NCBI GenBank assembly: GCA_001824435.1
Contig: MHXH01000016.1
Coordinates: forward strand, 14,970-78,969
From: Parcubacteria group bacterium RIFCSPLOWO2_01_FULL_48_18
Lineage (GTDB): Bacteria; Patescibacteriota; Minisyncoccia; UBA6257; WO2-01-48-18
Direction of reading: 5' to 3'
Length of the DNA stretch: 64,000 nucleotides
The notes beneath the pieces were generated by a model. That model did no database searches. It saw nothing but the letters and a program-made list of their open reading frames with translations, and was not told the origin of the DNA. Shown piece by piece: positions 7,004-55,613 of the stretch (position 1 is the first letter of the stretch; each line of letters begins with the position of its first letter). Made by a program: the position numbers and the translations under genes.

Positions 7004-7007
7004 CATT

Positions 7008-11623: not shown

Positions 11624-12280
11624 ATGGTCAACGCGAAACCGGCTACTCAACAAATAGTCGAAATAAAAGAAATTAAGGACGATATCGTATATCTCAAGGG
11701 CGGCGGACTGCGCGCCGTGATTATGGTTTCCGGCGTCAATTTCGACCTGAAATCCGAAGAAGAACAGAATATCCTTCTCTACGGCTATCAAAGTTTCCTT
11801 AATTCGCTTGATTACTCGTTCCAAATCGTTGTTCACTCACGGAAGTTAAACATCGACGGCTACTTGGAAATGCTCCGGCAACGCGAGTTGCAGGAGCAAA
11901 ACGAACTCCTCAAGGCGCAAGTCGCCGAATACGTGGAATTCGTAAGCTCGTTCGTACAGATGAACGCCATCATGTCAAAAACATTTTACGCAGTCGTCCC
12001 GTACGACGTCATCCAGGTAGGGTCAAAAACCATTGCCGGCCTCGGAAGCCTTATGGAAGGAGGATCAAGGGCGCCGGTTGCAACAACAAAGGAAGAAGAC
12101 GAAACCGTAAAAATAACCCAGCTCGAACAGCGAGTCGAACAAGTTCTGGGAGGCATCCGCAGAATGGGACTCCGGGCGGTTCGCCTCAATGCGCAGGAGC
12201 TCATTGAGCTCTACTACAATTTGTATAACCCGGAGGAAAAAGAACGGACGCTCGCAATTGCAAAAGATATGACTACATAG
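11624..12280 (+). CDS. VirB4/TraE-type conjugal-transfer ATPase, N-terminal domain fragment (218 aa)
   Basis: LKGGGLRAVIMVSGVNFDLKSEEEQ is typical of the N-terminus of Gram-positive-type VirB4 proteins. It ends at a TAG immediately before a 93-bp inverted-repeat element. It is in the same frame as 12374..14188. Confidence 0.6.
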   Translation: MVNAKPATQQIVEIKEIKDDIVYLKGGGLRAVIMVSGVNFDLKSEEEQNILLYGYQSFLNSLDYSFQIVVHSRKLNIDGYLEMLRQRELQEQNELLKAQVAEYVEFVSSFVQMNAIMSKTFYAVVPYDVIQVGSKTIAGLGSLMEGGSRAPVATTKEEDETVKITQLEQRVEQVLGGIRRMGLRAVRLNAQELIELYYNLYNPEEKERTLAIAKDMTT

Positions 12281-12373
12281 TCGTATACAGCTTGTAGCTG
12301 GTAGCCGGTAGCTTCTTAATCGTGGTTTAACTTATTACCAAAAAGCTACAAGCTAAAAAGCTACAAGCTAATC
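12281..12373. mobile_element. 93-bp (31-codon, in-frame) inverted-repeat element splitting the VirB4 gene
   Basis: The left end has cagcttgtagctggtagccggtagc and the right end has aaagctacaagctaaaaagctacaagct, forming AGCTTGTAGCT / AGCTACAAGCT inverted repeats. It carries three in-frame stop codons. Confidence 0.55.
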
Positions 12374-19044: not shown

Positions 19045-20403
19045 ATGAACATAAACCTTGAAGATTTTTGGAAAAACGTACTCGGCGAAGTAGAACTCGA
19101 GATATCAAGGCCTAATTTCGTCACATGGCTGAAGGGCAGCCGCCTTGTAGACAAAAAGGACGGCGTCGCGCTGGTAAGCCTTCCCAGCAACTTTGCCCGC
19201 GAATGGGTGGAAAACAAATACAATAAATTGATACTCCGTTCGCTGCGCGCGCTCGACCAATCCTTAAAGCGCGTGGAATACACCATCGACGCTTCTCAGC
19301 ACAACAAGATCCTTCCGCAGAAGACGCCGGTACTCATTACCAACCAACTTGCGTTTCAAGAATTCAGAGTCGATCCAGAAACAAATCTTAACCCCCGGTA
19401 TACGCTCTCATCGTTCATCGTTGGTTCATCAAACGAACTCGCGTACGCGGCAACGACCGCAGTGATTAACGAAATCGGAACAAAGTACAATCCGCTTTTC
19501 ATTTACGGAGGCGTGGGTCTTGGAAAGACTCATCTGCTGCAAGCGATGGGCAATGAAATAAAAAACCTGCACAAAAATAAAATTCGCGCGCGGTATGTAA
19601 CGTCGGACCGGTACGTCAACGACGTAGTGTGGGCTATCCGCAACAAACGGATGGACGACATCAGAGAGAAATACAGGAACGTTGACATCCTCATCATTGA
19701 CGACATCCAGTTTGTCGGCGGCAAAGAGAGAACGGAAGAGGAATTCTTCCATACATTCAATGCGCTGTATGAAATGAATAAACAAATTGTTATATCGTCG
19801 GATCGCGCCCCGCGGGCAATTCCCACCCTTGAAGAACGCCTGCGTTCGAGATTCGAAGGCGGAATGATCGCCGATATCGGGTTCCCAGACTACGAAATGC
19901 GCGTTGCCATTCTGAAAACGAAACTGCAAGAAAAAAATCAGGAATTACCGGACGACATCATCGATCTTGTCGCCTCCCGCATCCAGCGCAACATTCGAGA
20001 ACTTGAGGGAGTCCTCAATCGGATCTTGTTCCATCAACAGAAAAAAAACGAACCGGCAAGCATTAAAACCGCAGAAGGAATCATTCAAGAAAATGCGACG
20101 CAACCGGTTAAACAAATCAGTTTTCAGCAGATCACGCAAGCCGTATCTTCGTTCTTCGAAATCCCCGAAAAAGACCTCCTGGGGCGTTCGCGGAAGAAAG
20201 AAATCGTGTTTCCGCGCCAAATTGCCATGTACATCATCCGAGAAGAGCTCAGTGCGTCTTATCCCGAAATCGGGAGCAGGCTCGGGAAAAGGGATCACAC
20301 GACGGCGATTTATGCCTATGAAAAAATATCTAAAGAGATTCAGAAAAACCCCGCGCTCGCGAGTAAAATCAACTTATTGAAAGAGAAAATACATAACAGT
20401 TAG
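19045..20403 (+). CDS. dnaA: Chromosomal replication initiator protein DnaA
   Basis: AAA+ Walker A GGVGLGKTHLL and a C-terminal DnaA-box-binding domain. Confidence 0.9.
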   Translation: MNINLEDFWKNVLGEVELEISRPNFVTWLKGSRLVDKKDGVALVSLPSNFAREWVENKYNKLILRSLRALDQSLKRVEYTIDASQHNKILPQKTPVLITNQLAFQEFRVDPETNLNPRYTLSSFIVGSSNELAYAATTAVINEIGTKYNPLFIYGGVGLGKTHLLQAMGNEIKNLHKNKIRARYVTSDRYVNDVVWAIRNKRMDDIREKYRNVDILIIDDIQFVGGKERTEEEFFHTFNALYEMNKQIVISSDRAPRAIPTLEERLRSRFEGGMIADIGFPDYEMRVAILKTKLQEKNQELPDDIIDLVASRIQRNIRELEGVLNRILFHQQKKNEPASIKTAEGIIQENATQPVKQISFQQITQAVSSFFEIPEKDLLGRSRKKEIVFPRQIAMYIIREELSASYPEIGSRLGKRDHTTAIYAYEKISKEIQKNPALASKINLLKEKIHNS

Positions 20404-20594
20404 TAACCCTGTGAAATGGCATTGGATAATTACTGAACAAGCGCGATGTTCCGAAGGACGTCCTGTCGCTTTCCGCTTTATACAGTTTTTCCCCCCAACT
20501 TATACTCCTTCTTTCTCCTTACGAATAGAGACAAAAGAGGATAAAGAATAAGAAACAAAGCGTTGTCCACTTATCCCCTCCCCCTACTATAACT
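20404..20594. promoter_or_regulatory. dnaA-dnaN intergenic region with DnaA-box-like motifs and an AT-rich element (second oriC candidate)
   Basis: TTGTCCACT and TTATCCCC near 20560..20578, ATTGGATAA at 20421, and the AT-rich aaaagaggataaagaataagaaacaaag. Confidence 0.4.
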
Positions 20595-21719
20595 ATGAAA
20601 TTATTAATATTAAGAGAGAATTTAAAACAGGTAGTAGGTATTGTTGATCGCGCCGTGAGCAATTCGTCTTCTCTGCCGGTACTAAGAAATATTTTGGTAA
20701 TCGCAGCAAATGGTACCATTTCTGTTTCTGCAACAAATTTGGAATTGGCCGTTACCGCGACGCTTACCGGCAAGATTACCGAAGAAGGTTCACTCACTAT
20801 TCCTGCACACGTCTTTTCTGCAATCGTAGGAAGCGTTTCTTCGGAAAAGATACATCTCGAAAAGAAAGGGAATTCGGTACTGGTAAAGACAGACAACTAT
20901 GAAGCCGCGATTCAAACGATCCACGAAAAAGAATTTCCCATTATACCGAAGGCAAAAAATACGCGCGAGTTTATAGATATCGACGGCAATCTTTTAAGGT
21001 CTGCTTTCGACCAGGTAATTAATGCGGCTGCAACGGTCTCGGATTTTCGTCAAGAACTTTCCGGAGTATTATTTTCTTTTCAAGGGGATTCGATTATCTG
21101 CGCCGCAACCGATAGCTTCCGGCTCGCTGAAAAAACGATATCACACGCTCAGTACCAAACTAATATCGAAAAAGGTTTTACGGTTATTATACCGGCGAAG
21201 AATGTTCAGGAGCTTATTAAAATACTACCGTCGGGAACGGTTCGCATCCACGTCGACCAGAATGAAATCATTTTTAAAAACGAGGAACGTGAGATCGTTT
21301 CGCGCCTTATTGAGGGAAAGTTTCCTGATTACCGGAATATCATTCCGACGTCATTTGATTTCAACGCGCACGTGCCTATCAATGAGCTTCTGGAAGGCCT
21401 CAAGCTCGTTCATGTGTTTGCAAGTCGGCTCAATGATATTAAAATAGCGATTGCCGATAGTCATAAAACCGCTGAATTATCTTCGCGCGAAACCGGCTTA
21501 GGAGAAAACCGTTACCTCGTTCCGATAAAAGGAGAGGGGACGGCGTTTGAAGTCATGTTTAACGGCATCTACTTCTCGGACGGATTGAGGTCTGTCGCAA
21601 AAGCGGCAAAAAACGAGAGGGCATTTCTCGGGCTCAACAAAAGTTCTCGCCCTTCCCTCATACGAGCGGTTGAAGACAAATCGCTTCTCTATGTTCTTAT
21701 GCCTATCAGGCAGCCGTAA
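20595..21719 (+). CDS. dnaN: DNA polymerase III beta sliding clamp
   Basis: Follows dnaA; 374 aa with a three-domain clamp pattern. Confidence 0.85.
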   Translation: MKLLILRENLKQVVGIVDRAVSNSSSLPVLRNILVIAANGTISVSATNLELAVTATLTGKITEEGSLTIPAHVFSAIVGSVSSEKIHLEKKGNSVLVKTDNYEAAIQTIHEKEFPIIPKAKNTREFIDIDGNLLRSAFDQVINAAATVSDFRQELSGVLFSFQGDSIICAATDSFRLAEKTISHAQYQTNIEKGFTVIIPAKNVQELIKILPSGTVRIHVDQNEIIFKNEEREIVSRLIEGKFPDYRNIIPTSFDFNAHVPINELLEGLKLVHVFASRLNDIKIAIADSHKTAELSSRETGLGENRYLVPIKGEGTAFEVMFNGIYFSDGLRSVAKAAKNERAFLGLNKSSRPSLIRAVEDKSLLYVLMPIRQP

Positions 21720-27352: not shown

Positions 27353-29272
27353 TTATTCGATGACCACCCGTTCGTATTCGGTTACGGTAGGGTCGTCGGG
27401 TACGTCGCTCCCGAGACCGATGTCGTATGATTCGGGCCGAGCGCCGGTGAATTCATCGGTGGCAATAAGACGCGTTTCTTTTACAAGCGGTACGTAGCCC
27501 CCTATGTTGAGAATTGAAGGAGTTGTTCGGACTTGGAATATCGCTTCTGCGGCTTCATCAACAACCCCTCGGTTCGCGTGCAGTTTGTCGATGCGCCACG
27601 TAACCTCGGATGTCCTTTCGTCGTACTTCGGCACGGTATTCGCCGTATTGCTTTTTACTGTGCCGGTCCATTCTACGCCAGCCTCCAGTGCGGTTCGTAC
27701 TTCGACGTTGCGCATATCGGCACCGTGCGTTTTTATGATCCAGTGGACGGTGAATTCGGTGGGCGCGTTTACCTTCATTGGCATCGGTCCCTTATTGAGG
27801 ATTCCGGATGCTGCGTCGCGGAATAGCGCCTTGGCATCGATCTCGACCCGGCCCGCAACTTTATTCTCCGCCTCGGCAACGGCAACCGTCTTTTCCGCGG
27901 CTACCAGTGAGGGAACCGTGGGAGATTCTACAATCACCTTAAGCTTGAGCGCATAGTTTTTATCATTAAGCCGTCGGGTGGGATAGGCGTCTTTGGTGTT
28001 TATGTCGAAATACACGACTCCTCCTGCATCTGCGGGAAGCGAGCGAAGCCCTGGGGTATTCGCGCCGTTCCACGTAAGCGTGTTGTTAATGCTTTCGAAA
28101 AAAGCCTTGGACTTGACCGTTTTGAGATTAAACAGTTCCCCGGAAAGTTGCGCCTTGATGATCACGTCGGCAAGCGCAACTCCGGTGTTATTTTCGTATG
28201 CGATTTCATACCGGATTGCGTCGGATAGTCGTGTCACGTAGTCGTTTTTTCCGTTAGCCGCTATGTTGACATAGATCGGTGAGGGCGCTATGGCAAATGA
28301 CGCTGACCTTCGGTCGATGACGACTGTTTTGTTCCATGCGGCTATTTCAAGGCGTGCGCCCACGTTGAAGAAAGTTCCCTCGTTGCCGTATGCTCTGCCG
28401 ACGATGGCGATCTTGTTCGTTTCTTGGTTGCTGACGAGCTCGAATTTCCAGACGTTGTTTTCTCCAGCCGCTTTTTTGTCAGACGAGAGGAATTCATAGT
28501 TGGTCGGATAGTCGAGCGTAAGGGTGACGTCGCGGAATACCTGGCTTGAGATGTTGCGGAACGAGAATTCGAGGCTGAACTCCTCTCCGCTAAGCACTTT
28601 GTTCGGAGACATGACGTCGAGCCTGAGCGCCGCCTCGCCGACGTTTATGACAAAGCGCGCTTCTTGGACGAACCGTGATGTAACACCAGCGGTCGCATAG
28701 GAAAACAATCCGCGAAGTTCTTTGGTGCTTTTTTCGCCTTTGAGCGGGACCAATTGGAACGTTTCTTGCGTAACGGCTCCGGCGTCGAGGTTTTCTAGTT
28801 CCTTGGCGATGATAGCTTGATCAAGCGCGCCTATTGCCTGGATGCCGTCCGGAAGGAATAGTTCGATCCTCGCGCCGGACAATGCCGACGGGGATTCGTT
28901 GGCGATATTTAGCCGTACCTCGAACGGTACGCCGAGAAGAACCTCGTCCGGTCCATCGATGATGAGCGAAGCGCCTTCGACGGTGCGGGACGTTGAAAGA
29001 TAGAAATATGCCGTTGCTGCGCCCCCAATGAGGGTAAGACCGAATAGGAAAATCGTGAGCTTGAGGAATGAAAACGGCGGCTTGGGAATCTTCGGTTTCT
29101 GCCGTTTTTGTTTTTTGCTGGAGGCGCTCATGGGGATTTCTTTTTGCGGACTGACGGGATCCATGGTGCCGTATGCTTCTTGTTGCTTGCGCACCAGCTC
29201 ACGGTAACGCGATCGGCGTTCTTCGGGTCCCGAGGGGCTGTAGAGTTCTTTTTCAAGATCTTCTAGTGACAA
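27353..29272 (-). CDS. Large membrane-anchored surface protein with repeated beta domains
   Basis: A basic cytoplasmic N-terminus and a single TM helix (LTIFLFGLTLIGGAATAYFYL) are followed by a ~550-aa strand-rich ectodomain. Confidence 0.45.
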   Translation of the reverse strand: MSLEDLEKELYSPSGPEERRSRYRELVRKQQEAYGTMDPVSPQKEIPMSASSKKQKRQKPKIPKPPFSFLKLTIFLFGLTLIGGAATAYFYLSTSRTVEGASLIIDGPDEVLLGVPFEVRLNIANESPSALSGARIELFLPDGIQAIGALDQAIIAKELENLDAGAVTQETFQLVPLKGEKSTKELRGLFSYATAGVTSRFVQEARFVINVGEAALRLDVMSPNKVLSGEEFSLEFSFRNISSQVFRDVTLTLDYPTNYEFLSSDKKAAGENNVWKFELVSNQETNKIAIVGRAYGNEGTFFNVGARLEIAAWNKTVVIDRRSASFAIAPSPIYVNIAANGKNDYVTRLSDAIRYEIAYENNTGVALADVIIKAQLSGELFNLKTVKSKAFFESINNTLTWNGANTPGLRSLPADAGGVVYFDINTKDAYPTRRLNDKNYALKLKVIVESPTVPSLVAAEKTVAVAEAENKVAGRVEIDAKALFRDAASGILNKGPMPMKVNAPTEFTVHWIIKTHGADMRNVEVRTALEAGVEWTGTVKSNTANTVPKYDERTSEVTWRIDKLHANRGVVDEAAEAIFQVRTTPSILNIGGYVPLVKETRLIATDEFTGARPESYDIGLGSDVPDDPTVTEYERVVIE

Positions 29273-29944: not shown

Positions 29945-30799
29945 CTATGGAGTAGTGGTAGTGGTGGCATATCGCCATTGTGTTCCGTCGCAAATCGCGA
30001 GTTTGTTGACGCTGCCGGCGAGGAAGAACAACCTGCCGGTTTCTCCTGCTGCGTCGCAGTCGCTGGCAGTAGCGCTGCTCCTAAAGCCGATCTGAAGATA
30101 GGCGCTGGAGGTTACATGGAATGCGCTGGTTGGAGAAGTTCCGACGCCAATCCCGACAAGGCTGGACGCGGGGTTTACATAAAAGAATGGAGCGCTGCCG
30201 ACGCTTATAGTTCCGTCGATAGATGTATTGCCGGCGAAATAGCCGTCCTGCCATTTTTGCCCTGAAGCGCCGACGTGTTTGCCGCTTGCGTTGGGAAGCA
30301 GGTCGGAATCAAAGGTTACCGCCGATACTTTTGAAATGGCAGAGCGCAGGGTCTTGGTGAACGCCCGCGTTGGGTCGGTAGTATTATATGACAGCGTCAG
30401 GTTTATTTGCACCGTATCCTTTGCCGGAGGATTGGAGAATTTTGTAAACGTAAGCTGGTCAACGGTTGTTTTGCTGTCTGTAAGCGCCACGTCAGCGCCA
30501 GACCCCTCTTTGACATAAATGATGTTGCTGTTAACGAAAATCCTGGTAGGATCTTTTGCGGTTTCCTCCATCCGCAGTATCAGCGACGAGCTGGCATCTT
30601 CGATAAGCGAGGCGTTACGGACGAGCCGTTGAATAGTTTGCATGATGAAATTTGACTGATCGGTCACTTCGACCGCCGCCGATTCTCTTCCCTGAATTCT
30701 CAAGCTGCTATATAGAATGCCGACCAAAAAGATGCTTCCGATGACAAAAAGCGAAACATAGAGGAGAAGCTCTACAAATGAAAAACCGCGGATACTCAT
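29945..30799 (-). CDS. Type IV pilin / pseudopilin-like protein with a prepilin N-terminal cleavage/methylation motif
   Basis: MSIRG|FSFVELLLYVSLFVIGSIFLVGILY matches the G/FxxxE prepilin signature. The start is at MSIRGF (30799) rather than the track's 30868. Confidence 0.65.
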   Translation of the reverse strand: MSIRGFSFVELLLYVSLFVIGSIFLVGILYSSLRIQGRESAAVEVTDQSNFIMQTIQRLVRNASLIEDASSSLILRMEETAKDPTRIFVNSNIIYVKEGSGADVALTDSKTTVDQLTFTKFSNPPAKDTVQINLTLSYNTTDPTRAFTKTLRSAISKVSAVTFDSDLLPNASGKHVGASGQKWQDGYFAGNTSIDGTISVGSAPFFYVNPASSLVGIGVGTSPTSAFHVTSSAYLQIGFRSSATASDCDAAGETGRLFFLAGSVNKLAICDGTQWRYATTTTTP

Positions 30800-30897
30800 A
30801 AATGTGGAACGCGTTTTGCTGTAAGCGTTGACCGAAGAGCGGCGTTTGGGCGTAGCCAAGCGCCGCATAGTATTAGTATAGCATAAAGAAAGGACGG

Positions 30898-44362: not shown

Positions 44363-45445
44363 CTAATATGAGAAAATGTTTCTTCCTAGCGTGATGGAGG
44401 GATTATTCTCCTTGTCGTTGGTTGAGACAATGAATTTTTCCGACGGATTCGCAAGGAATGCGTCGGCCGCAGCGTCGTAAAGCCGAGGGACGATTCTGTC
44501 GAAATAGGGATAATAGAGAGGGAATAGTTCAACGTCTATCTCCTTGAGGAAGTTTTTTGCCCGCGATCTGCTCATCGGTTCGGGAACGCGGAGGTTATCC
44601 ACATTTGGTTGGATTAAAATAATGGCGGCTCCTTCGGCAATTGCGCAGCGCAGCTGGTTTGTTATGAGTACTCGTACGTTGTCGCGGATATAATGGAGGA
44701 GCTTGCGAGAGAGGGATTCGTCGTCCGGCGGAGGATCCCAGTTGTAGGTTATCATGTGCGCGAGAATGACGAGTTCTTTTGGATCGCTCCCGCCGTTTTT
44801 GCGAGCTTGAATGATAGAAGTCGTAGGAAGGGGTTCGAGGCGTGCCGCATCGCTGTAAGCGACCCCATCGATCCATTGAGGCCCAAAATAGACCGGATGT
44901 GCCGATGATGCAACTACCGCAGAAGAGATGGTTGTCTCCGGCGTGCTATCCGGAGAGAAAACAGTTGCCTTGCCCCCGTGGTCTTTGTTGCTTGGAGTGG
45001 CAAGTATGGAGAAGCGAGGAAACGACATTGAGAACCTATCCCGTTCCGGTGTTATGGTGCTCCGGATGAGAAATCGGAAATGGTCTCCGTTCACGATCCC
45101 GGCCCTCTTTCCAAATGCTCGTTGTAATCCCCGCAAGGCAAGATTGACCGTTGAGAGCGTTTTGGGGCCGACCATGTTTTTCAGCCTTGTCGACCGGAAG
45201 AGATTTTCCATACGGACCGGATCAAGGCCGGAACAGAAGAAGGCGGCAGAGATCGAACCGGCGGATGACCCCCAAACAGAAGAAATAAGATTTCTATGCG
45301 GCCAGAGGGGTTTTAAAAATGCTTGCGTGGATGCTAGCGCATGCATCGCACCAGCGCCGCAGCTTACCGCAGCCGTGAAGCCAGCCTCGTTGATGCGCCT
45401 GAGAAGCCGACCCGCTGCATCGGGCGGTACAGCCGTATCCGGCAT
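44363..45445 (-). CDS. Patatin-like phospholipase family protein
   Basis: GxSxG nucleophile elbow (GSSAG) and a DGV Asp motif. Confidence 0.5.
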   Translation of the reverse strand: MPDTAVPPDAAGRLLRRINEAGFTAAVSCGAGAMHALASTQAFLKPLWPHRNLISSVWGSSAGSISAAFFCSGLDPVRMENLFRSTRLKNMVGPKTLSTVNLALRGLQRAFGKRAGIVNGDHFRFLIRSTITPERDRFSMSFPRFSILATPSNKDHGGKATVFSPDSTPETTISSAVVASSAHPVYFGPQWIDGVAYSDAARLEPLPTTSIIQARKNGGSDPKELVILAHMITYNWDPPPDDESLSRKLLHYIRDNVRVLITNQLRCAIAEGAAIILIQPNVDNLRVPEPMSRSRAKNFLKEIDVELFPLYYPYFDRIVPRLYDAAADAFLANPSEKFIVSTNDKENNPSITLGRNIFSY

Positions 45446-45640
45446 ATCCGATCACCCCCTTGTATGAACGCGTGGTTACGCGCGAGAGAGAAGCCCATTT
45501 TCAAACCTCTGTCCCAATTATAGCTGAATGCAAAGAAAAAATCAAGCAGAATACAAGACTCATAGAATCTGCAAAAATAACATATTTCACCGTCGCCACT
45601 TGCACGTACGACGCATTTTGTTAGCATTAAAGCATAATCC

Positions 45641-48028
45641 ATGGATCGATTTTCTGCAAAGTTTCATGTAGCTCTTTTGTGCGGCGGCCCATCGCTTGAG
45701 CGGGGCATTTCCCTCAATTCTGCCCGGTCGGTAGTGGACCATCTCGAATCCGAAGAAATCTCCGTACAGCCAATCTATTTTGATTTCAGGAAAAATCCCT
45801 ACAAAATTTCAAGGGCGCAATTGTATTGCAACACTCCCTCTGATTTTGACTTCAAGTTGAACCGAACGGCAACGCCGTTCACGGAACGATCGCTTGTCCG
45901 TTTTCTCAGGGCGGTAGATATTATTTTCCCCGTTATGCACGGACCATTCGGCGAGGACGGCGAGATCCAGTCTTTTCTTGAACGGTATAACCTCCCGTTC
46001 GTCGGCTCAGGGGCAAAAACATGTAAAAAGGCCTTTGATAAATTTACTGCAAATGAATATATAAAACAGCACGGCTTTTTTACTTTGCCATCGGTTGTGC
46101 TCAAGATATATCATCACGATCATAAATACATTCTCGAAAGATTTTTCAAAGAGTATCGAGTCAAGCGTGCCGTGGTAAAACCCGCAAGCGGAGGATCGAG
46201 CATCGGGGTGTTTTCGGTATCCAGCGCTCGCGAAGCGCTGGAAAAATCGAACCTTCTTTTCTCGAGACGAATGGACACCCGTGTCGTAGTTGAACCCTTT
46301 GCCAAGGGGGCAGAGTTTACGACTGTCATGCTTGAAAATCGTTTCGGGCTGCCGGTTGCGTTGCCGCCCACCGAGATCGAAACCGACTATGCCGAGCATC
46401 AAATTTTCGATTTCAGGAAAAAATACCTGCCGACTCGCCAAGTAACATGGCATTGCCCCCCCAGATTTGATAATTGGACGATCGAAAAAATTCAAGCGCA
46501 GGCAGAACAACTGTTTGCGTTATTTCATATGCGCGATTTTGGCAGATTTGACGGTTGGGTACTGCCCGGCGGAGATATCTGGTTTTGCGATCTTAACCCG
46601 ATAAGCGGCATGGAGCAAAATAGTTTTCTGTTTCAGCAGGCATCGCGCATCGGCATGACGCACGGCGATGTGCTGCGTCACATTGTTAGAAGGGCATGCG
46701 AGAGATACGGCATAGATTTTCCAGAGATCGTCCTGAAGCCCCCCGCGCGCCGCAAAAAGGTAAATATCATAATGGGCGGCGACAATTCCGAAAGGCAGGT
46801 TTCTTTGATAAGCGGTACGAATGTATGGCTTAAGCTCCGCCGCTCCAAGCGGTACGAACCGCAGCCATATCTGTTGGATACCAGAGGTTATGTATGGCGG
46901 CTGCCCTATCATCTGTGTTTGAATCATACTGTTGAAGAAATTGCCGAGGATTGCGAGGGGTATCAATATACGAAGAACAGACTTGCTGTATTCGAAGAGC
47001 GCGCTCGGCTGCGATTGGGATTCTTGAAACCAAAAGACAAAGAAGAATTTTTTGAACCGAGCAAATTAGCGTTCAAGAAGTTCATTAAAACATCGGACCT
47101 CATTTTTATCGCCCTTCACGGAGGCGACGGAGAGAATGGAAATTTGCAGAAATTGCTTGGCGCGCAGGGAGTAAAGTTCAACGGTCCGTACGAAGAAGCG
47201 TCCCGACTTTGCATGGACAAGTGGGACACTGCAAGCTTTATCAACAACGCGGGTATCGCGGGCGTCAGTGCTATTCCAGGCAAAACGATTGAAACCCGTG
47301 CCGTGCTCCGGTTCGATGACCGGGGCATCAGATTATTCTGGCGAAAAACCAGGAAGGAGATTGGGGCAAAGACGTTGATCGTAAAGCCTCGCGCCGACGG
47401 TTGCACCACCGGAGTTGTTCATCTCCGCTCGCCGAACGACCTTAAAAAATACGCAGAGCTGCTCTTTAAAAAAGCGCCCGTTGTGCCGCGGCAGACATTT
47501 AGGGGGCAGAGGGATATTATAGAAATGCCTCCGGCCTTGCCCCGTGACCTGCTCTTCGAGAAATTTATTGAAACCGACGCATTGCGCGTTAAAGCCGGTA
47601 CGTTAAAATATCAGCGTCGCACGGGGTGGATTGAAATTACTGTCGGCATCGTTGAGATAGACGGCGAACTCAAGGTCCTTAGTCCAAGCATTACCGTGGT
47701 TGAGAGCGAAGTGTTAACCGTAGAGGAAAAGTTTCAGGGCGGCACCGGCGTCAACATTACGCCGCCGCCGCCGAGCATCATGAAACCGGCAGTACTCAAG
47801 AGGGTGAAGGACCTGATTGAGGAAGTCGCGCGCAAGATCGGCATCCGCGGTTATTCGCGGATTGACGCGTTTGCCAATGTTGACAGCGGCGACGCGTTGA
47901 TTATCGAGGTAAACACGCTGCCCGGCCTTACCCCTTCAACCGTTTTTTTTCACCAGGCGTTGGCAGAATCACCTCCGCTTTTTCCCGCGGAACTCCTGGA
48001 GATTTTGATCCGGAATAAAAGGTATTAA
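45641..48028 (+). CDS. ddl: Tandem-domain D-alanine--D-alanine ligase family protein (two ATP-grasp Ddl-like modules fused)
   Basis: The Ddl N-terminal signature occurs twice (HVALLCGGPSLERGISLNSA and KVNIIMGGDNSERQVSLISG), each followed by an ATP-grasp region. 795 aa. Confidence 0.6.
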   Translation: MDRFSAKFHVALLCGGPSLERGISLNSARSVVDHLESEEISVQPIYFDFRKNPYKISRAQLYCNTPSDFDFKLNRTATPFTERSLVRFLRAVDIIFPVMHGPFGEDGEIQSFLERYNLPFVGSGAKTCKKAFDKFTANEYIKQHGFFTLPSVVLKIYHHDHKYILERFFKEYRVKRAVVKPASGGSSIGVFSVSSAREALEKSNLLFSRRMDTRVVVEPFAKGAEFTTVMLENRFGLPVALPPTEIETDYAEHQIFDFRKKYLPTRQVTWHCPPRFDNWTIEKIQAQAEQLFALFHMRDFGRFDGWVLPGGDIWFCDLNPISGMEQNSFLFQQASRIGMTHGDVLRHIVRRACERYGIDFPEIVLKPPARRKKVNIIMGGDNSERQVSLISGTNVWLKLRRSKRYEPQPYLLDTRGYVWRLPYHLCLNHTVEEIAEDCEGYQYTKNRLAVFEERARLRLGFLKPKDKEEFFEPSKLAFKKFIKTSDLIFIALHGGDGENGNLQKLLGAQGVKFNGPYEEASRLCMDKWDTASFINNAGIAGVSAIPGKTIETRAVLRFDDRGIRLFWRKTRKEIGAKTLIVKPRADGCTTGVVHLRSPNDLKKYAELLFKKAPVVPRQTFRGQRDIIEMPPALPRDLLFEKFIETDALRVKAGTLKYQRRTGWIEITVGIVEIDGELKVLSPSITVVESEVLTVEEKFQGGTGVNITPPPPSIMKPAVLKRVKDLIEEVARKIGIRGYSRIDAFANVDSGDALIIEVNTLPGLTPSTVFFHQALAESPPLFPAELLEILIRNKRY

Positions 48029-48105
48029 ACGGAAATATCCCAAACAGGTGGCGTCGTCTGGAAAGAGCATACACAGCATACCACTGATCGGGCTTTGCCT
48101 TCGAA

Positions 48106-48933
48106 TCATCGAACCGCGTCTTCAAATAAAGTTATTAGGAATTTTGTATTTACACCCGCCTTTCCGTTGCCGATGCGCAAGCTATCAATTTTTATTACGG
48201 GCATAATTTCCTTATTCGTTGCCGCAATAAATGCCTCGGAGGCGCCCCTAAGTTCCTGCAAACGGATGTTTCTCTCTTGTATAACGAAGTATTTTCGCGC
48301 TAAAGAAAGCACGAATTTTCTGGTTATTCCCAAAAGAATATCCCGCCTCGGCGTGATAAGGACATTGCGCCTGAATATAAAAAAATTGCTCGTCGTGCAT
48401 TCCAGCGCTTTGCCGTTTGACACATATAGGGTTTCGAGCGCCCCCCTGCGCAGTCTACGAATATGATCGTGAAACGCACTGAGATAGTTAATGGTTTTCG
48501 CCCGAGCAAATTCCCGTTGATGCTCTTTCGTAATCAGTTTAATTCCCTTTGTATGCGCCGACTGCGGGTAGGTATGTGGTTGTTCCAGAAGGATACAAAT
48601 ATCGGAAGAAAAACTCTTTGCGTCTTTGTCAAAATTTTTGGCCAAGACTAGGATACGAATATCCGCCTCTCCTATTTTATTCTTCTCAAGCAAAAACCCT
48701 ATTATTCTTTCAATTCTTTGCGCGGATATGGGCAACGACAGGTAGAGCGCCCGCGCGGAGTTTTTGAGCCGCGCGAGGTGTTCCGCAAGCCGGAAAGGCA
48801 CACCTCCATACATTCGTATAAATTCAAAAACACCGTATCCCCGCTGAAGGCCTAGGTTGCGAACATTAATATTTGCGTTTTGTACGGAAACAATTTTTCC
48901 GTTTACAAAACACCAACGAGGCGATGCCATCAT
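48106..48933 (-). CDS. Class IV aminotransferase (D-amino-acid / branched-chain family)
   Basis: Fold-type IV PLP enzyme pattern with a conserved Lys region. Divergently adjacent to the Ddl fusion gene. Confidence 0.65.
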   Translation of the reverse strand: MMASPRWCFVNGKIVSVQNANINVRNLGLQRGYGVFEFIRMYGGVPFRLAEHLARLKNSARALYLSLPISAQRIERIIGFLLEKNKIGEADIRILVLAKNFDKDAKSFSSDICILLEQPHTYPQSAHTKGIKLITKEHQREFARAKTINYLSAFHDHIRRLRRGALETLYVSNGKALECTTSNFFIFRRNVLITPRRDILLGITRKFVLSLARKYFVIQERNIRLQELRGASEAFIAATNKEIMPVIKIDSLRIGNGKAGVNTKFLITLFEDAVR

Positions 48934-49259: not shown

Positions 49260-49326
49260 GGCGATGTTGTAGTTAAAAGCGTAAAAATTGGAATCATACA
49301 TCGGCCTCAGGGGGGTCGATTTTCTT

Positions 49327-51765
49327 ATGAAGATCAAACGGGTTTTAAAATTCGGCGGCACATCGTTGGGATCTCCAGATGCCATCAGAAGAGCCAGCGC
49401 CATTATCAGGGAAGCGGCGCAGCGGGGGGCAATAGCCGTTGTTGTTTCTGCGTTTTCCGGCGTTACTGATCAGCTTTTGTGCTGCGCCAGATGGGCAGAG
49501 AAACAGAATCCTGAATTGAGGCAAGAACTGCGTCGGCTACGCATGCGTCATTTTGAAACGGCTCGAAAACTTTTTCCGGCAAAGCTTCGCGAGGAAGCTA
49601 GGGCGCCCTTGGAGCAATTATTTAAAGAATTGGAGGGGCGTCTTATGCGCATTGAAAAAGGAAAGGCTGCGTCGGTTCAAGACCTCGATGCTGTCGCAGG
49701 CATTGGAGAACGCCTATCCGCCCCCATCATTGCCGCTTACCTAAACAGTTTTGACACCAAACGTCATCCGTTCAGGTCATACACTATAGACGCCAGGGGT
49801 TTAATTAAGACCGACAGCTGCTTCGGAAGGGCCAGTGTTGATTTTGTTAAGACCGACCGCAATATTAAAGAGTTTTTCCATGGCCGTCCCGGAGGTAAAA
49901 ATATGGTTCCCGTGCTAACCGGCTTTATCGGGTCAACCGATGGGGGCGAAACCACAACGCTCGGTCGAGGCGGGTCTGATTACACTGCCGCAATCGTCGC
50001 TGCGGCCATCGATGCGAAACTCGTCGAAATATGGACCGATGTTGATGGGGTAATGAGTGCCGACCCCAATCTTGTTACGCACGCATATCTCTTGCCGCAA
50101 CTGACCTATTCCGAAGCGATTGAAATGGCATATTTCGGCGCTAAGGTTATCCATCCGGCAACCATGCTTCCGGCAATTAAAAAGAAAATTCCTATTCTCA
50201 TCAAAAATACATTTAACCCATCCTCGTCAGGCACTCTTATTTCCCATGGCGCATCCAGCGATAACAATCAAACCGTAAAAGGCATTACCGCAATAGATGA
50301 TGTTGCCATTATAAATATAGGTGGCGTGAGTTTGGCGGGTATACCCGGTTCAGCCGCCAGAGTTTTTAAGGCGACTGCCGCCGCGGGCGCCAATGTTGTT
50401 TTAATATCGCAGGCGTCGTCAGAGCATACAATCTGCATTGCGATAAAAAGAGAGAGCCTTGCCCCGGCCCTCTATTCTCTCCGAAAAGAATTTAGGGAAG
50501 CGATAAAACAAAAACAGGTAACGCTTCACACAATCAAGGATCAATCCATTGTTGCCGTCGTGGGAGACGGCATGCGGGGAACGCCTGGCGTTGCCGGCAA
50601 GTTATTTAACGCCCTTGCTGAACACGGGATAAACATTTCCGCGATTGCCCAAGGGGGCTCTGAACGAAATATTTCTCTTGTAGTAAAATCGTCCGACAAA
50701 GCAGCTGCGCTTAACGTCATCCATAATGCGTTTTTACGGGTTCCGCCAAAACACATCTTTCTAGCAGGCACCGGCAATATAGGGGGCAAGCTTCTAGAGC
50801 AGATGAAGGCCCATCCTCATCTCAGGGTATGCGGTCTTATTAACACCGATTTTATGCTTTCTGACTCGAGGGGCATTCAACTTGACCGGTGGAGCATTTT
50901 ATTGGGTCGCGGCCAGCAAGCTAACGTACAAACATGGCTCTCGCGGGCACGAACCCTCAATCTGTCGAATAAAATTTTTGTTGATTGCACTGCCAGCAAA
51001 AAAATCGCTCGGCAGTACTGCAACATTGCCCGGGCCGGTTTTCATATTGTAACGCCGAACAAGATATTCAATGTGTTACCATTTGACGAATACCAAAAGC
51101 TGCGCCGCATTTTGGCGCAAAACAACAAGCGCTTCCTTTATGAAACAACGGTTGGCGCGGCTATGCCGATCATCTCTACGCTAAGAGATCTTGTTGCTAG
51201 CGGGGATGGCATTACCAGGATCGAGGGTATTTTTTCCGGAACGCTCAGTTATATCCTAAGCGCTTACGACGGAAAAAGACCGTTTAGCTCGGTGGTGCTG
51301 GAAGCGAAGGAAAAAGGCTATACCGAGCCCGATCCTAGAACTGACCTTTCAGGAGAAGATGTGGGAAGAAAACTGCTTATTCTGGCCCGCGAAATAGGCC
51401 TGCCGCTTGAAATGGAAGACATAAAAGTCCAAAGTTTGGTGCCTCCCCCCCTGCGAAAAGTAAAATCGGCAGACTCGTTTTTGGCGCGTTTGAAAGACTA
51501 CGACAAACAGTTTGAAAAACTATGCAAACGCGCTAGAGTAAGAGGACGGGCGCTGCGATACGTGGCAACGCTTCAAGGAAGGCGGGCGTCGGTATCGCTT
51601 AAAGAAATTCCATTGACCGATCCTTTGTCCTCTACTCGTGGCGCTGATAATATCTTTGTTTTTTATACCAAGCGCTACAACGAACGGCCGTTGGTGGTTC
51701 AAGGGCCCGGAGCCGGCGCCGCAGTCACCGCTGGAGGGGTGTTGACGGACATTCTTAAAATCTAG
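49327..51765 (+). CDS. thrA: Bifunctional aspartokinase / homoserine dehydrogenase
   Basis: An aspartokinase N-terminus (KFGGTSLGS), ACT domains and a homoserine dehydrogenase C-terminus. The start is at MKIKRV. Confidence 0.85.
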   Translation: MKIKRVLKFGGTSLGSPDAIRRASAIIREAAQRGAIAVVVSAFSGVTDQLLCCARWAEKQNPELRQELRRLRMRHFETARKLFPAKLREEARAPLEQLFKELEGRLMRIEKGKAASVQDLDAVAGIGERLSAPIIAAYLNSFDTKRHPFRSYTIDARGLIKTDSCFGRASVDFVKTDRNIKEFFHGRPGGKNMVPVLTGFIGSTDGGETTTLGRGGSDYTAAIVAAAIDAKLVEIWTDVDGVMSADPNLVTHAYLLPQLTYSEAIEMAYFGAKVIHPATMLPAIKKKIPILIKNTFNPSSSGTLISHGASSDNNQTVKGITAIDDVAIINIGGVSLAGIPGSAARVFKATAAAGANVVLISQASSEHTICIAIKRESLAPALYSLRKEFREAIKQKQVTLHTIKDQSIVAVVGDGMRGTPGVAGKLFNALAEHGINISAIAQGGSERNISLVVKSSDKAAALNVIHNAFLRVPPKHIFLAGTGNIGGKLLEQMKAHPHLRVCGLINTDFMLSDSRGIQLDRWSILLGRGQQANVQTWLSRARTLNLSNKIFVDCTASKKIARQYCNIARAGFHIVTPNKIFNVLPFDEYQKLRRILAQNNKRFLYETTVGAAMPIISTLRDLVASGDGITRIEGIFSGTLSYILSAYDGKRPFSSVVLEAKEKGYTEPDPRTDLSGEDVGRKLLILAREIGLPLEMEDIKVQSLVPPPLRKVKSADSFLARLKDYDKQFEKLCKRARVRGRALRYVATLQGRRASVSLKEIPLTDPLSSTRGADNIFVFYTKRYNERPLVVQGPGAGAAVTAGGVLTDILKI

Positions 51766-51800
51766 AATATGGAATTTGAAATTTGAAGACTATTTGAAAT

Positions 51801-51837
51801 AAAAAAAGTGGCGCTCGCAAACAGCGTGTAGCGCCAC
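51801..51837. terminator. Bidirectional terminator hairpin GTGGCGC-N16-GCGCCAC with an A-tract on the 5' side
   Basis: Direct reading. The GAAATTTGA tandem repeats at 51766..51800 lie just before it. Confidence 0.55.
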
Positions 51838-51862
51838 AGATATGACAGTGCCGTCGTGATAG

Positions 51863-52060
51863 TTATACTAGCCTTACCACTCGTTCCACGAAGGGATCAA
51901 GGAAGCCCGATACATTCCCGCCAGCGGAACGGATGCGCCCATCAACGATTTCAACCCGGATAGCCAAACCTAAACCAGAGTAGAAATCAGGGTTAAGGCC
52001 AAGCATGCTCATGACTTCATTTTGGCGGTCAAGCTTGATGATTGCGACAAGGTTATTCAC
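51863..52060 (-). CDS. Hypothetical small protein (65 aa)
   Basis: ORF with its own terminator downstream. Confidence 0.3.
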   Translation of the reverse strand: MNNLVAIIKLDRQNEVMSMLGLNPDFYSGLGLAIRVEIVDGRIRSAGGNVSGFLDPFVERVVRLV

Positions 52061-52136
52061 GGAGTTCTCCTCGTGTCTTTGGTGGGCTAACTATCAAGCG
52101 GTCCGAACGATTACATTATAGCACCTCATTAATATC

Positions 52137-53225
52137 ATGTCAATCCCCAAAATATGTAAATTGCGAGTTGGCATATTGGGCGCGACAGGCATTGTGGGAC
52201 AAAAGTTTATTGTCCTGCTTCAAAACCATCCGTGGTTTGAGCTCGTTTCTGTTGCTGCGTCTGAAGAATCAGCCGGAAAAACGTACGAAAAGGCGGTTGC
52301 CGGAAGATGGAAGCAGCAAGTCGATATCCCAAAAAATGTCGCTCGAACGAAGGTGTCCCAATGCGACCCGCACGCCATGCAAGCGGACTTCGTGTTTTCC
52401 GGATTGGACGGGGCAGTGGCCAAAGACATCGAAAGGTCTTTTGCGGAAAGCGGTATTCCGGTTATTTCCAATACCAAAACGTACCGCATGGAAGAAGACG
52501 TACCGCTCCTTATCCCCGAAATTAATCCGGACCATATTCGGCTCATTGATATACAACGTAAAAGGCGGCAGTGGTCCGGATTTATCGTTACCAATCCCAA
52601 CTGTGTTGCAATTCCGCTGGCAATGGCGCTTAAACCTATTTATGACGCCGTGGGAATCCAAAAAGTTTCTGTGGTGTCTATGCAGGCGATCTCGGGCGCC
52701 GGATTTCCCGGCGTCGCCTCTATAGATATTGTGGACAACCTCATTCCATATATCGTTGGGGAAGAGCCGAAGGTAGAAACCGAACCGTTGAAACTCTTGG
52801 GAAAACTTGCGGCTGGAAAAGTGAAATTCGCCGCATTTCCGATTTCAGCGCAGTGCAACAGAGTGGCAGTACAAGATGGACATTTTTTGAATATTTCGTT
52901 TACAACCGCAAAAAAAACATCGGTCGAGCGGCTTAAAAAATTGATACGAGATTTCAGAGGCGAGCCGCAAAAACTAAAATTGCCCTCTGCGCCCCAAAAT
53001 CCGCTTATATATCTCGATGATGATTTTAGGCCGCAACCGCGGCTGGACCGTGACCGCGAAGGTGGAATGGCGATAACCATAGGCCGCCTCCGTGAATGCC
53101 CTGTATTTGGGTATAAGATGGCGGTTCTCGGCCACAACACTATCCGCGGAGCTGCCGGCGCAGCTATTCTTAACGCTGAGTTGCTGTATAAAAAGGGTTA
53201 TCTTGTTCGTTCTCGTTTCTCATAG
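52137..53225 (+). CDS. asd: Aspartate-semialdehyde dehydrogenase
   Basis: An NAD-binding motif VGILGATGIVGQ and the catalytic Cys region. Confidence 0.85.
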   Translation: MSIPKICKLRVGILGATGIVGQKFIVLLQNHPWFELVSVAASEESAGKTYEKAVAGRWKQQVDIPKNVARTKVSQCDPHAMQADFVFSGLDGAVAKDIERSFAESGIPVISNTKTYRMEEDVPLLIPEINPDHIRLIDIQRKRRQWSGFIVTNPNCVAIPLAMALKPIYDAVGIQKVSVVSMQAISGAGFPGVASIDIVDNLIPYIVGEEPKVETEPLKLLGKLAAGKVKFAAFPISAQCNRVAVQDGHFLNISFTTAKKTSVERLKKLIRDFRGEPQKLKLPSAPQNPLIYLDDDFRPQPRLDRDREGGMAITIGRLRECPVFGYKMAVLGHNTIRGAAGAAILNAELLYKKGYLVRSRFS

Positions 53226-53353
53226 TAATCTGATGAGGTCGCCAGCGGTAATTCTATACTTGTACTACGAAACAGCATTGCGGATCTCCGATTTTTCGAG
53301 TATCTCAATAATATTCTAACATTCTCAAGAATGTCAGAATATTGTGGCAGGAC

Positions 53354-53641
53354 ATGACGGACAAAGTCAAAAATCAAAAACAAATGGAACGGCACTTTAA
53401 GGGCGTAGCAAATCACCGCCGCATTGAGATTCTTATGGTTATCGCCGAACACGAAGGAGTTACGCTGGACAACCTATCGCGCATCGTTTCGTGCAATTTT
53501 AAAACGCTTTCCGAACATACGCGCCGGCTCGTCCAAGCCGGTTTGATAAATAAGAAATACCACGGACGGTTTGTCCGCCATACACTCTCGCCATATGGCA
53601 GAATGTTCTATAAGTTTATCGTGACGCTCCGACATTCTTGA
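53354..53641 (+). CDS. ArsR-family HTH transcriptional regulator
   Basis: A winged-helix core (LDNLSRIVSCNFKTLSEHTRRLVQAGLI). Imperfect palindromes ACATTCT..AGAATGT lie at 53310..53343 and 53631..53659. Confidence 0.6.
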   Translation: MTDKVKNQKQMERHFKGVANHRRIEILMVIAEHEGVTLDNLSRIVSCNFKTLSEHTRRLVQAGLINKKYHGRFVRHTLSPYGRMFYKFIVTLRHS

Positions 53642-53775
53642 GAATATTAGAATGTTATGTGGTAGGGATAATGGAAATGTGAAGTCGTAAATTCCCGCGA
53701 CATTTCGCTGAGTGGGATAAATATAAGAGGTGCCACGGGGCGTAGGAATGGAATGAGGGTGTCGCCGTTCACATA

Positions 53776-54285
53776 ATGCGTACCAACACAAAACAAAGCA
53801 TCACATTAATCGGCATGCCGGGGTCGGGTAAGTCGACTATCGGGCGGCTCGTTGCGCGGCGGCTGAATTGGAATTTCGTCGACCTCGATGACGTCATTAA
53901 AGAAAAAGATGGAAAGAGCCACGCGGAGATTCTTGAATTCGACGGAGAGAAAACGCTCCTTGCGCGTGAAGAGGCGCATACGCTTGGACTTGTTTTTTCA
54001 AACCTTGTATTCTCGCCGGGCGGGAGCATTATCTATTCGCCGAAGGCGATGGAAAAACTCCGCAGTGAAACGCGCGTCATCTATCTTGCGCTTCCGCTTC
54101 CTGAAATAAAAAAACGCCTCGGCAAAAAAATCAACGACCGCGGCATTGTGGGGCTTGCCAAAAAAGGGATTGAAGGATTATTTAAAGAACGCGCGCCGCA
54201 GTACAAAGCGGCTGCCCACCATACTGTTGATTGTTTGAACCTGCGTAAACAGGAAATTGTAAAAAGAATTCTTCAAGACGCATGA
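53776..54285 (+). CDS. aroK: Shikimate kinase
   Basis: Walker A GMPGSGKST, ~169 aa. Confidence 0.8.
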   Translation: MRTNTKQSITLIGMPGSGKSTIGRLVARRLNWNFVDLDDVIKEKDGKSHAEILEFDGEKTLLAREEAHTLGLVFSNLVFSPGGSIIYSPKAMEKLRSETRVIYLALPLPEIKKRLGKKINDRGIVGLAKKGIEGLFKERAPQYKAAAHHTVDCLNLRKQEIVKRILQDA

Positions 54286-55613
54286 AATACTACAGTACCA
54301 ACAAACGCGCTCCGCTTGTTACTTTTAAAGAAGCGCTTCTCCGTGGTCTTGCGCCGGACGGAGGCCTGTACATGCCGCAGTCGTTCCCGAAATTTCCTAT
54401 TTCTTTTTGGAATGATATCGAAAAAACAAGCTCTGGTCGCGTTGCATTTGATCTTTTGCGTCATTTTATCACAGACATACCGGCGCCAGCATTTAAAAAA
54501 ATCATCCGTGATGCATTCAATTTTCCGGCACCGCTTGTGCGACTTAACGACAATGTATATGTGCTGGAACTCTTTCACGGCCCAACGCTTTCTTTCAAAG
54601 ATTTCGGCGCGCGATTTATGGCGCGTACAATGGGATATTACCTCCGTTCCCAGAAAAAGAAATTGTATATTTTTGTGGCTACGTCCGGAGATACCGGAAG
54701 CGCGGTTGCGCACGGTTTTTTTAATATTCCCGGAGTACGCGTGTTCATTCTGTATCCTTCGGGTCGCGTGAGCAGAAACCAGGAGAAACAACTTACGACA
54801 TTCGGAAAAAATATCACGGCGTTTGAAATTAAGGGGAATTTTGACGACTGTCAGCAGCTCGCAAAACAGCTTTTGAACGATCCCGATATTCGAAAAAGGG
54901 CTCTCGTTTCATCCGCCAATTCAATAAACATCGGCCGTCTACTGCCGCAGATGTTTTATTATCTCTTCGGTTGGGCGCAGCTTCAAAGCCGTAGAACTGT
55001 CGAGCTATCGAGCTGTCAAGTTCCTATTTTTGTGGTCCCGAGCGGTAATTTCGGGAATATATGCGCCGGGCTTTTTGCAAAAAAACTTGGGCTTCCGGCC
55101 AAAAAATTCATCGCGGCGGTAAATATAAACAGCGGCGTGCCGGAATATTTAAAGACTGGCCGCCTTCCCGTGAAAAAAACGAGGCGCACGCTTTCAAGCG
55201 CAATGGACGTGGGACTCCCAAGCAATTTCGCGCGGATCCTTGATTTATATGGCCATAACCGGGAGTCTTTGCAAAAAGATTTAGACGCGGCCATAGTGAC
55301 AGATCGTGAAACAAAAAAGACCATCCACGAAACATACGAGAAATATGGTTATATCGCCGATCCCCATACTGCGGTAGGAATTGCCGCAGGGCTTCGGTAT
55401 CGCGAATCGGGCCGGGGAAACGATCCGATAATTGTCCTTTCAACCGCCCATCCCGCAAAATTTCCGGAAGCCGTCGAAAAACAAATTAAAGAAAAGCTTA
55501 CTGTGCCCGGCTCGCTCCGCAGAATAATCAGAAGAAAGAACAGGGGCGTCCTCGCAAAGAACAACCCTGAAGATCTAAAAAGACTTATCGGAAAATACAT
55601 AAAACATCCATGA
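54282..55613 (+). CDS. thrC: Threonine synthase
   Basis: PLP-binding FKDFGARFMA region; overlaps the aroK stop. Confidence 0.85.
   Translation: MKYYSTNKRAPLVTFKEALLRGLAPDGGLYMPQSFPKFPISFWNDIEKTSSGRVAFDLLRHFITDIPAPAFKKIIRDAFNFPAPLVRLNDNVYVLELFHGPTLSFKDFGARFMARTMGYYLRSQKKKLYIFVATSGDTGSAVAHGFFNIPGVRVFILYPSGRVSRNQEKQLTTFGKNITAFEIKGNFDDCQQLAKQLLNDPDIRKRALVSSANSINIGRLLPQMFYYLFGWAQLQSRRTVELSSCQVPIFVVPSGNFGNICAGLFAKKLGLPAKKFIAAVNINSGVPEYLKTGRLPVKKTRRTLSSAMDVGLPSNFARILDLYGHNRESLQKDLDAAIVTDRETKKTIHETYEKYGYIADPHTAVGIAAGLRYRESGRGNDPIIVLSTAHPAKFPEAVEKQIKEKLTVPGSLRRIIRRKNRGVLAKNNPEDLKRLIGKYIKHP

Follow-up and report, generated by a model that had tools for sequence, protein, structure and literature searches.

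A tandem D-alanine–D-alanine ligase in a Parcubacteria genome: two conserved, nonequivalent modules and sequence-based orthology to the double DDL of plants

D-Alanine–D-alanine ligases (Ddl) such as Escherichia coli DdlB (2DLN/1IOV in the Protein Data Bank [PDB]), the DdlA-type enzymes (3I12, 3TQT), and the Thermus enzyme (6U1H) have one module per chain and form homodimers. The plant enzyme is a double one: in Arabidopsis At-DDL, as in its Physcomitrella homologue, two putative DDL enzymes are joined in one gene, an arrangement found throughout the plant lineage, and these proteins (Arabidopsis At-DDL, Physcomitrella PpDDL BAE45860, and rice BAF22630) are nuclear-encoded (PMC9954125). DDL is one of four peptidoglycan genes retained even in flowering plants, knockout of the moss ddl gene abolishes D-alanine dimerization for peptidoglycan and gives giant chloroplasts, and the reason for the doubling is not known (PMC9954125). 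The pentapeptide made by moss is the ordinary D-Ala-D-Ala form (PMC9434261). Here, we describe a tandem ddl gene (ddl-ddl) in a stretch of 64,000 nucleotides, referred to as the window, from the genome of Parcubacteria group bacterium RIFCSPLOWO2_01_FULL_48_18 (contig MHXH01000016.1). Its 795-aa product contains two Ddl modules in series and is, judged by sequence, a bacterial orthologue of the plant-type tandem DDL. The double-DDL architecture is already known from plants, a kinship that went unrecognized when the locus was first described from its sequence (the original prediction). In the literature searched, we found no paper describing a bacterial tandem Ddl or its link to the plant gene; the 2017 work of Sato and Takano, which reportedly analyzed the origins of plant peptidoglycan enzymes, may cover it.

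The original prediction held that the product consists of two complete Ddl-like modules in series, each with a glycine-rich N-terminal signature, and domain searches bear this out. The Pfam models Dala_Dala_lig_N and Dala_Dala_lig_C are each found twice in the protein, and each half searched alone is above the gathering scores of PF01820 and PF07478, with 85.4 and 85.4 bits for the N half (residues 1–365) and 68.5 and 54.3 bits for the C half (residues 366–795). The motif GG-x-S-x-ER-x-(I/V)-SL-x-S stands at the start of both halves. Solved Ddl chains are likewise matched by each half separately, with e values down to 3e-29 for the N half and 1e-19 for the C half. The whole protein passes three curated NCBIfam models of Ddl subfamilies, TIGR01205 (308.3 bits against a cutoff of 245.65), NF002528, and NF002378. 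Every curated NCBIfam model of the VanA, VanC, and VanG types scores far under its cutoff (VanA, 112.7 vs. 775; VanG, 198.9 vs. 495; D_ala_D_lac, 148.9 vs. 550), as does the MurC-Ddl model NF011171 (157.7 vs. 1015), and the window protein contains no Mur_ligase domain. The N and C modules share just 20% identity, so the duplication or fusion of paralogues that gave rise to the protein is ancient.

To compare the two active sites we used the numbering of E. coli DdlB, whose sequence was checked against PDB 1IOV/2DLN and matches over all 306 residues, and scored conservation in a set of 194 family members (44–100% identity) and in a wider set of 184 sequences that reaches down to 31% identity and includes plants. 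A three-way alignment with DdlB places equivalents of E15, K97, K144, E187, K215, R255, D257, N272, and G276 in both halves, and in both sets these positions, which serve ATP, Mg, and substrate in DdlB, show little or no variation in either module. The N module has a complete E15-S150-Y216 triad, E20-S186-Y262, together with K134, K180, E225, K261, R302, D304, and N319. At the triad positions the C module reads E-C-F, and it retains K527, K582, E665, K697, R740, D742, E756, and N758. Where DdlB has S281-L282, the N module has S328-F329 and the C module T767-V768. The half-by-half alignment thus finds the catalytic set kept in both halves, with K-Y in the omega loop of the N module and K-F in that of the C module, so neither half is a degenerate copy, as the original prediction had allowed. 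In fold, domain order, and catalytic residues each module resembles the single-module enzymes; the window protein differs from them in fusing two weakly similar modules into one chain, in Phe for L282 in the N module, and in Cys for S150, Phe for Y216, and three inserts relative to DdlB (about residues 413–478, 610–635, and 643–662) in the C module.

The features that set the two modules apart recur in plants. The protein of Coffea eugenioides (XP_027176337, 956 aa) aligns without a break to residues 9–789 of the window protein, with 47% identity (e value 5e-182), and proteins of Populus deltoides, [Myrmecia] bisecta, and Tetraselmis astigmatica are among the matches too. When the Coffea sequence is taken together with nine sequences that group with it, the N-module K-Y, D, and S-F residues are found in all ten, as are the C-module C and K-F residues, and T-V is found in nine of the ten, the tenth being gapped there. 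The C-module inserts are also present in the Coffea sequence. A neighbor-joining tree groups Coffea and eight cluster representatives, most of which have N-terminal extensions, with 93.5% bootstrap support, a value that applies to the group itself and not to its placement among the bacteria. Because Coffea and these eight representatives cluster apart, the window protein is better read as an orthologue than as a plant contaminant. The bacterial and plant proteins are thus alike in that each chain has two Ddl modules, arranged in one order and co-linear from end to end, with the same module-specific residues and C-module inserts. They differ in that the window protein has neither a transit peptide nor any other N-terminal extension (in Coffea the match begins at residue 82) and in that its gene lies in a bacterial chromosome near dnaA and dnaN. 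Genetic evidence ties the enzyme to D-Ala-D-Ala supply in moss; in bacteria the tie comes from gene neighborhoods and fusions.

Tandem Ddl proteins are common in uncultured bacteria and in the lineage of the window. A word-indexed search gave 120 homologues among the matches listed, with lengths of 764–837 aa, identities of 61–100%, and query coverage that is nearly always 96–100%, and a scan of one genome per species recovered at least 299 loci with the same single ORF. An exhaustive HMMER search against representatives of clusters at 50% identity retrieved 380 clusters at an e value of 1e-30 or less, about 100 of whose representatives align end to end, and full-length homologues span 31–100% identity. 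One protein differs from the window protein at a single residue and is labeled Parcubacteria group bacterium RIFCSPHIGHO2_02_FULL_48_10. A chlamydial origin of the contig, first guessed from its patatin, H+-PPase, and DUF11 genes, was dropped. We took 80 of the 299 genome loci for neighborhood comparisons, and the record labels of 47 of these carry names of the Patescibacteria or candidate phyla radiation type; the other labels are mutually inconsistent and include Gammaproteobacteria, Rickettsiales, Bdellovibrionales, Moanabacter, and others as well as unclassified records. The same ORF is also carried by a cultured isolate, Opitutia bacterium ISCC 51 (Verrucomicrobiota; protein QXD22482), with a genome of 4.8 Mb.

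This distribution bears on the concern, raised with the original prediction, that the ORF might be two ddl genes joined by a sequencing error. A lost stop codon can in principle fuse tandem paralogues, but the linker is co-linear in bacterial homologues, the cultured isolate, and plants, and the same single ORF recurs in hundreds of genomes, so that an assembly or sequencing artefact is refuted. The database search for the fused architecture that had been suggested as a check accordingly finds it in at least 299 loci and in plants. We also considered whether half-length matches represent split genes and hence a heterodimer, and rejected them as evidence, since most are fragments at contig ends. 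The sole convincing unfused C-type module among them is P0230 (locus L083, 368..1630, plus strand), a protein of 420 aa that is 46% identical to the C half of the window protein and has the Cys, Lys-Phe, and Thr-Val signature; just 2 nt separate the start of its gene from a preceding, unrelated ORF, whose product by eye resembles phosphatidylserine decarboxylase. Because P0230 stands alone, a C-type module can evidently exist unfused.

To determine which genes accompany tandem ddl genes, ORFs immediately adjacent to them in the 80 loci were clustered and then scanned against Pfam. Downstream of the ligase gene, alanine racemase is encoded in 15 of 70 loci, typically on the same strand and 2–16 bp past the stop codon, and an Asp/Glu-family (MurI-like) racemase in 2 loci. 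Upstream, alanine racemase is found in 3 of 69 loci, an M24 peptidase in 10 of 69, and a GlmM-like mutase in 5 of 69; overall, 18 of the 80 loci have an alanine racemase neighbor. In a relative whose protein is 75% identical, PBP2, mreC, and mreB lie within a few kilobases of the tandem ddl. Two cluster representatives on metagenome contigs extend this association, at the protein level, to predicted fusions: P0160 (1262 aa; 15.6-kb contig) would be Ddl-Ddl-MurF, and P0177 (1638 aa; 12.8-kb contig) would be Ddl-Ddl-MurF-alanine racemase. Their extra ligase modules pass TIGR01143 (murF) with 323 and 357 bits against a cutoff of 288.6. Fusions of several enzymes of the D-Ala branch are known from MurC-Ddl of Chlamydia (NF011171) and from MurF-Alr (NF008897), to which P0160 and P0177 are comparable; the window protein itself differs from both in having neither a Mur ligase nor a racemase module. 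From the alanine racemase (alr) neighbors together with the MurF and Alr fusions, the family belongs to the branch of peptidoglycan precursor synthesis that runs from Alr through Ddl to MurF.

A structure prediction with AlphaFold2 for the full 795 residues, based on an alignment of 58 sequences, gave two Ddl-fold modules packed in a defined way, with a mean predicted local distance difference test (pLDDT) score of 87.6 and a predicted template modeling (pTM) score of 0.85. Because the pTM is this high for a two-module chain, the relative placement of the modules is confidently predicted. The pLDDT falls below 50 only at residues 1–4 and in the omega loop of the C module; it is 55–61 in the N-module omega loop, and residues 361–370 of the linker dip to 71. 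In the PDB the model matches single Ddl chains only, Leuconostoc LmDdl2 (1EHI) among them, with template modeling (TM) scores of 0.79–0.88 when normalized to the target and at most 0.40 when normalized to the query, which indicates that no tandem Ddl has been solved. The second module would most likely stand in for the partner subunit of the Ddl homodimer, in keeping with the pseudo-dimer that the original prediction had offered as one option.

Taken together, we consider it probable (roughly 0.72) that the window protein serves as a housekeeping D-Ala-D-Ala ligase whose two modules form a hetero-pair within one chain, both sites being catalytic. Two anciently diverged Ddl modules, one of N type and one of C type, would be combined in one polypeptide that folds as a fixed two-module body, with the C module in place of the homodimer partner. 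Each module would provide a complete ATP-grasp site and both would probably be catalytic, the N module as a standard dipeptide-ligase site and the C module as a fixed variant with Cys for Ser150, Phe for Tyr216, and Thr-Val for Ser281-Leu282. The protein would supply D-Ala-D-Ala, which MurF would then add to UDP-MurNAc-tripeptide. Several observations weigh against this interpretation. The C module has E384-C588-F698 at the triad positions and the N module has D317 at the position of the DdlB Mg ligand E270 (Asp in 178 of 184 sequences, a conservative change and a further difference from the single-module enzymes); since the C module is without the triad and the N module has Asp for Glu270, a different or weaker activity is possible at either site. 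In addition, no Mur ligase or other mur gene was found among the large ORFs scanned in the 64-kb window, as the original prediction had observed for the adjacent genes, and no alanine racemase gene was found in the window.

The triad substitutions lead to two other explanations. In E. coli DdlB, the E15-S150-Y216 hydrogen-bond triad is tied to dipeptide versus depsipeptide specificity, Y216F confers depsipeptide (D-Ala-D-lactate [D-Ala-D-Lac]) activity in what is also termed a shift from dipeptide to depsipeptide ligase, and Lactobacillus reuteri Ddl owes its D-Ala-D-Lac synthesis to a Phe that occurs here naturally, the F258Y change leading to vancomycin sensitivity (PMC3378904). The modules might accordingly divide the labor, the N module making D-Ala-D-Ala and the C module joining D-Ala to a D-lactate-like 2-hydroxy acid, to D-Ser, or to another D-amino acid, with two precursor termini as the outcome; two different products were also among the options of the original prediction. 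With Phe (183 of 184 sequences) and Cys in the C module the E-S-Y triad cannot form, the omega-loop Phe is shared with the depsipeptide ligases LmDdl2, L. reuteri Ddl (F258), and the Y216F form of DdlB (1IOW), and the residues of the second subsite are fixed but different, with T-V for the C module and S-F for the N module as against S-L for DdlB. Because the differences between the modules are invariant from bacteria to plants, two distinct selected functions can be argued. We nevertheless regard a second product as unlikely. The VanA, VanG, and other D-Ala-D-Lac and D-Ala-D-Ser models are far under their cutoffs. By the alignments made here, the depsipeptide ligases have neither the inserts nor a Cys in place of S150, and no common sequence family emerged. 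The Y216F form of DdlB is also said to keep its dipeptide activity. No vanH- or vanX-like gene was found among the neighbors of relatives; two 2-Hacid_dh proteins (L038 and L042) were considered as VanH-like support for D-Ala-D-Lac and rejected, because a length of about 410 aa and an ACT domain make them SerA-like. Moss, whose enzyme belongs to the same C-module signature family, makes the ordinary D-Ala-D-Ala pentapeptide (PMC9434261).

It has to be considered as well that only one module is catalytic, its companion being a pseudo-subunit with a structural or regulatory role that preserves the dimer interface, which we hold to be very unlikely. Each module does carry catalytic-site substitutions (E270D in the N module; S150C and Y216F in the C module), but the equivalents of K97, K144, E187, K215, R255, D257, and N272 are near-invariant in both modules across the 184 sequences, plants included, and pseudo-enzymes normally lose their ATP and Mg ligands. 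What speaks for a silent module is that Arabidopsis T-DNA lines transcribe the C-terminal half alone and show no chloroplast phenotype (PMC9954125); this agrees with one half being enough. The housekeeping hetero-pair with two working sites remains the interpretation that we prefer.

The arrangement of ddl-ddl and its neighbors is given in table 1. The only consensus promoter-like match in the region between the patatin-like gene and ddl-ddl is on the minus strand, and scans for promoters and terminators gave nothing beyond the expectation from shuffled sequence, the count that includes the hairpin at 48063..48038 among them. None of the window neighbors of ddl-ddl is conserved beside it. This emerged from a comparison of 42 window proteins, with ORFs taken as genes, against the 80 loci (TBLASTN, e value of 1e-10 or less), in which thrA was found in 1 and asd in 2 of the 80 loci and no patatin gene was found beside the fusion in the other loci. 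The large window ORFs that were scanned include nusA, H+-PPase, clpP, an HD protein, uvrB, uvrA, uvrC, dnaA, dnaN, yidC, metG, a class II aminoacyl-tRNA synthetase, a histidine kinase, and a PrgI/VirB4-like cluster. In this window, ddl-ddl thus appears as a mostly ordinary housekeeping gene of cell-wall precursor synthesis with no special operon.

Table 1. Coordinates of ddl-ddl, its parts, and the flanking genes in the window
Feature	Positions	Strand	Remarks
Patatin-like phospholipase gene	44363..45445	-	True head-to-head neighbor of ddl-ddl; outside the system
Divergent intergenic region, patatin gene/ddl-ddl	45446..45640		195 bp; presumably holds both promoters
Tandem ddl-ddl gene	45641..48028	+	795 codons plus stop; single uninterrupted ORF
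N module, residues 1–360	45641..46720	+	Dipeptide-ligase-type Ddl
N-module omega-loop Lys-Tyr, codons K261-Y262	46421..46426	+	Invariant, 184/184 and 194/194
Inter-module linker, about residues 357–371	46709..46753	+	DdlB alignment stops and resumes; pLDDT dip
C module, residues 372–795	46754..48025	+	Divergent Ddl
C-module codon C588	47402..47404	+	DdlB S150 position; Cys in 173/184
C-module omega-loop Lys-Phe, codons K697-F698	47729..47734	+	Phe at DdlB Y216 position, 183/184
Spacer between convergent stops	48029..48105		77 bp; one weak terminator-like hairpin, minus strand, 48063..48038
Class IV (fold-type IV) pyridoxal phosphate aminotransferase gene	48106..48933	-	275 aa; PF01063
thrA	49288..51765	+	Head-to-head with aminotransferase gene

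The original prediction correctly placed a fold-type IV aminotransferase beside the ligase gene: the protein matches PF01063 with 156.6 bits and the catalytic Lys is present. The orientation had been misread, however, since the two genes are not head-to-head or divergent; the aminotransferase gene is read from the minus strand and reaches its stop at 48106, so that the two genes meet tail-to-tail with 77 bp between their 3' ends. The best solved matches are 7P8O/7P7X, a strict D-amino-acid transaminase (DAAT) from Haliscomenobacter hydrossis (e value 7e-40), followed by related noncanonical DAATs, branched-chain aminotransferases (BCATs; about 1e-31), and the canonical Bacillus DAAT (3e-22). 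In the window protein a K-T-I-N-Y motif corresponds to K143-Y147 of the Haliscomenobacter enzyme, and as read from the alignment the equivalents of its R28*, F33, R90, K143, and Y147 are kept (residues from PMC8401098). In contrast, the window protein has Thr for R179 and an ATNK turn where that enzyme has STIK. In R28* and R90 the protein resembles the noncanonical type and not the canonical Bacillus carboxylate trap of Y31, R98, and H100. The D-amino-acid type first assigned to it is thus plausible from the best solved match to a strict DAAT, but no curated DAAT or BCAT cutoff is passed (TIGR01121, 131.8 vs. 277.45; TIGR01122, 141.7 vs. 245.55). A role in D-amino-acid metabolism is plausible from the sequence, and would agree with the lack of an alr gene in the window. 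We also considered a conserved ligase–aminotransferase system, the functional pairing implied by the original prediction, and rejected it: the genes are convergent, the aminotransferase is beside a tandem ddl in none of the 80 related loci and is missing from the context of the 75%-identical relative, and the recurrent partner elsewhere is alanine racemase. The aminotransferase is a neighbor and not a conserved partner of the ligase.

The remainder of the window contains several further features. Beyond the aminotransferase gene, thrA (encoding a bifunctional aspartokinase/homoserine dehydrogenase), asd, aroK (shikimate kinase), and thrC follow in a row (49288..55613, plus strand), a threonine pathway string that would be an unexpected capacity if the host has a reduced genome of the Parcubacteria type. 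The genes dnaA and dnaN are adjacent (19045..21719, plus strand) and the cumulative GC skew has its minimum at about 22–24 kb, and because of this combination the replication origin of the chromosome probably lies within the window. A tRNA-Phe(GAA) gene (1655..1966, minus strand) has its anticodon loop split by a group I intron, about 237 nt long, which matches Rfam RF00028 at 1687..1944 with 51.8 bits (gathering score 50); ARAGORN with default settings found no tRNA in the window and recovered the split tRNA-Phe when introns were allowed. A PrgI-family protein and a VirB4/TraG-like P-loop ATPase are encoded at 10475..14188 (plus strand) among ORFs without a Pfam match, and this region may encode a type IV secretion system or a conjugation-like apparatus. 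A protein of 639 aa (27353..29272, minus strand) has a weak DUF11 repeat match alone, and several ORFs nearby (29945..30868 and 4734..9209) have no Pfam match.

The main interest of the family lies in its two conserved, nonequivalent active sites and in the orthology between bacterial and plant proteins. A possible, although doubtful, scenario is that the tandem enzyme is a conserved hetero-pair in which the N module is the dipeptide ligase and the C module a relaxed or depsipeptide-type site or one that differs kinetically or in regulation, that it arose once in bacteria, and that green plants gained their double DDL by horizontal acquisition and neither invented it nor inherited it from cyanobacteria. 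The bacterial tandem Ddl is a concrete candidate source of the plant gene, and the survey draws attention to a large subfamily of Ddl proteins with, at one of their two sites, a Phe variant that is linked elsewhere to D-Ala-D-Lac synthesis and glycopeptide insensitivity. Bacterial carriers offer tractable systems for the role of the second site, and if the enzyme is of bacterial origin and its modules do different jobs, cultivable carriers such as Opitutia bacterium ISCC 51 would be models for the second site of the plant enzyme.

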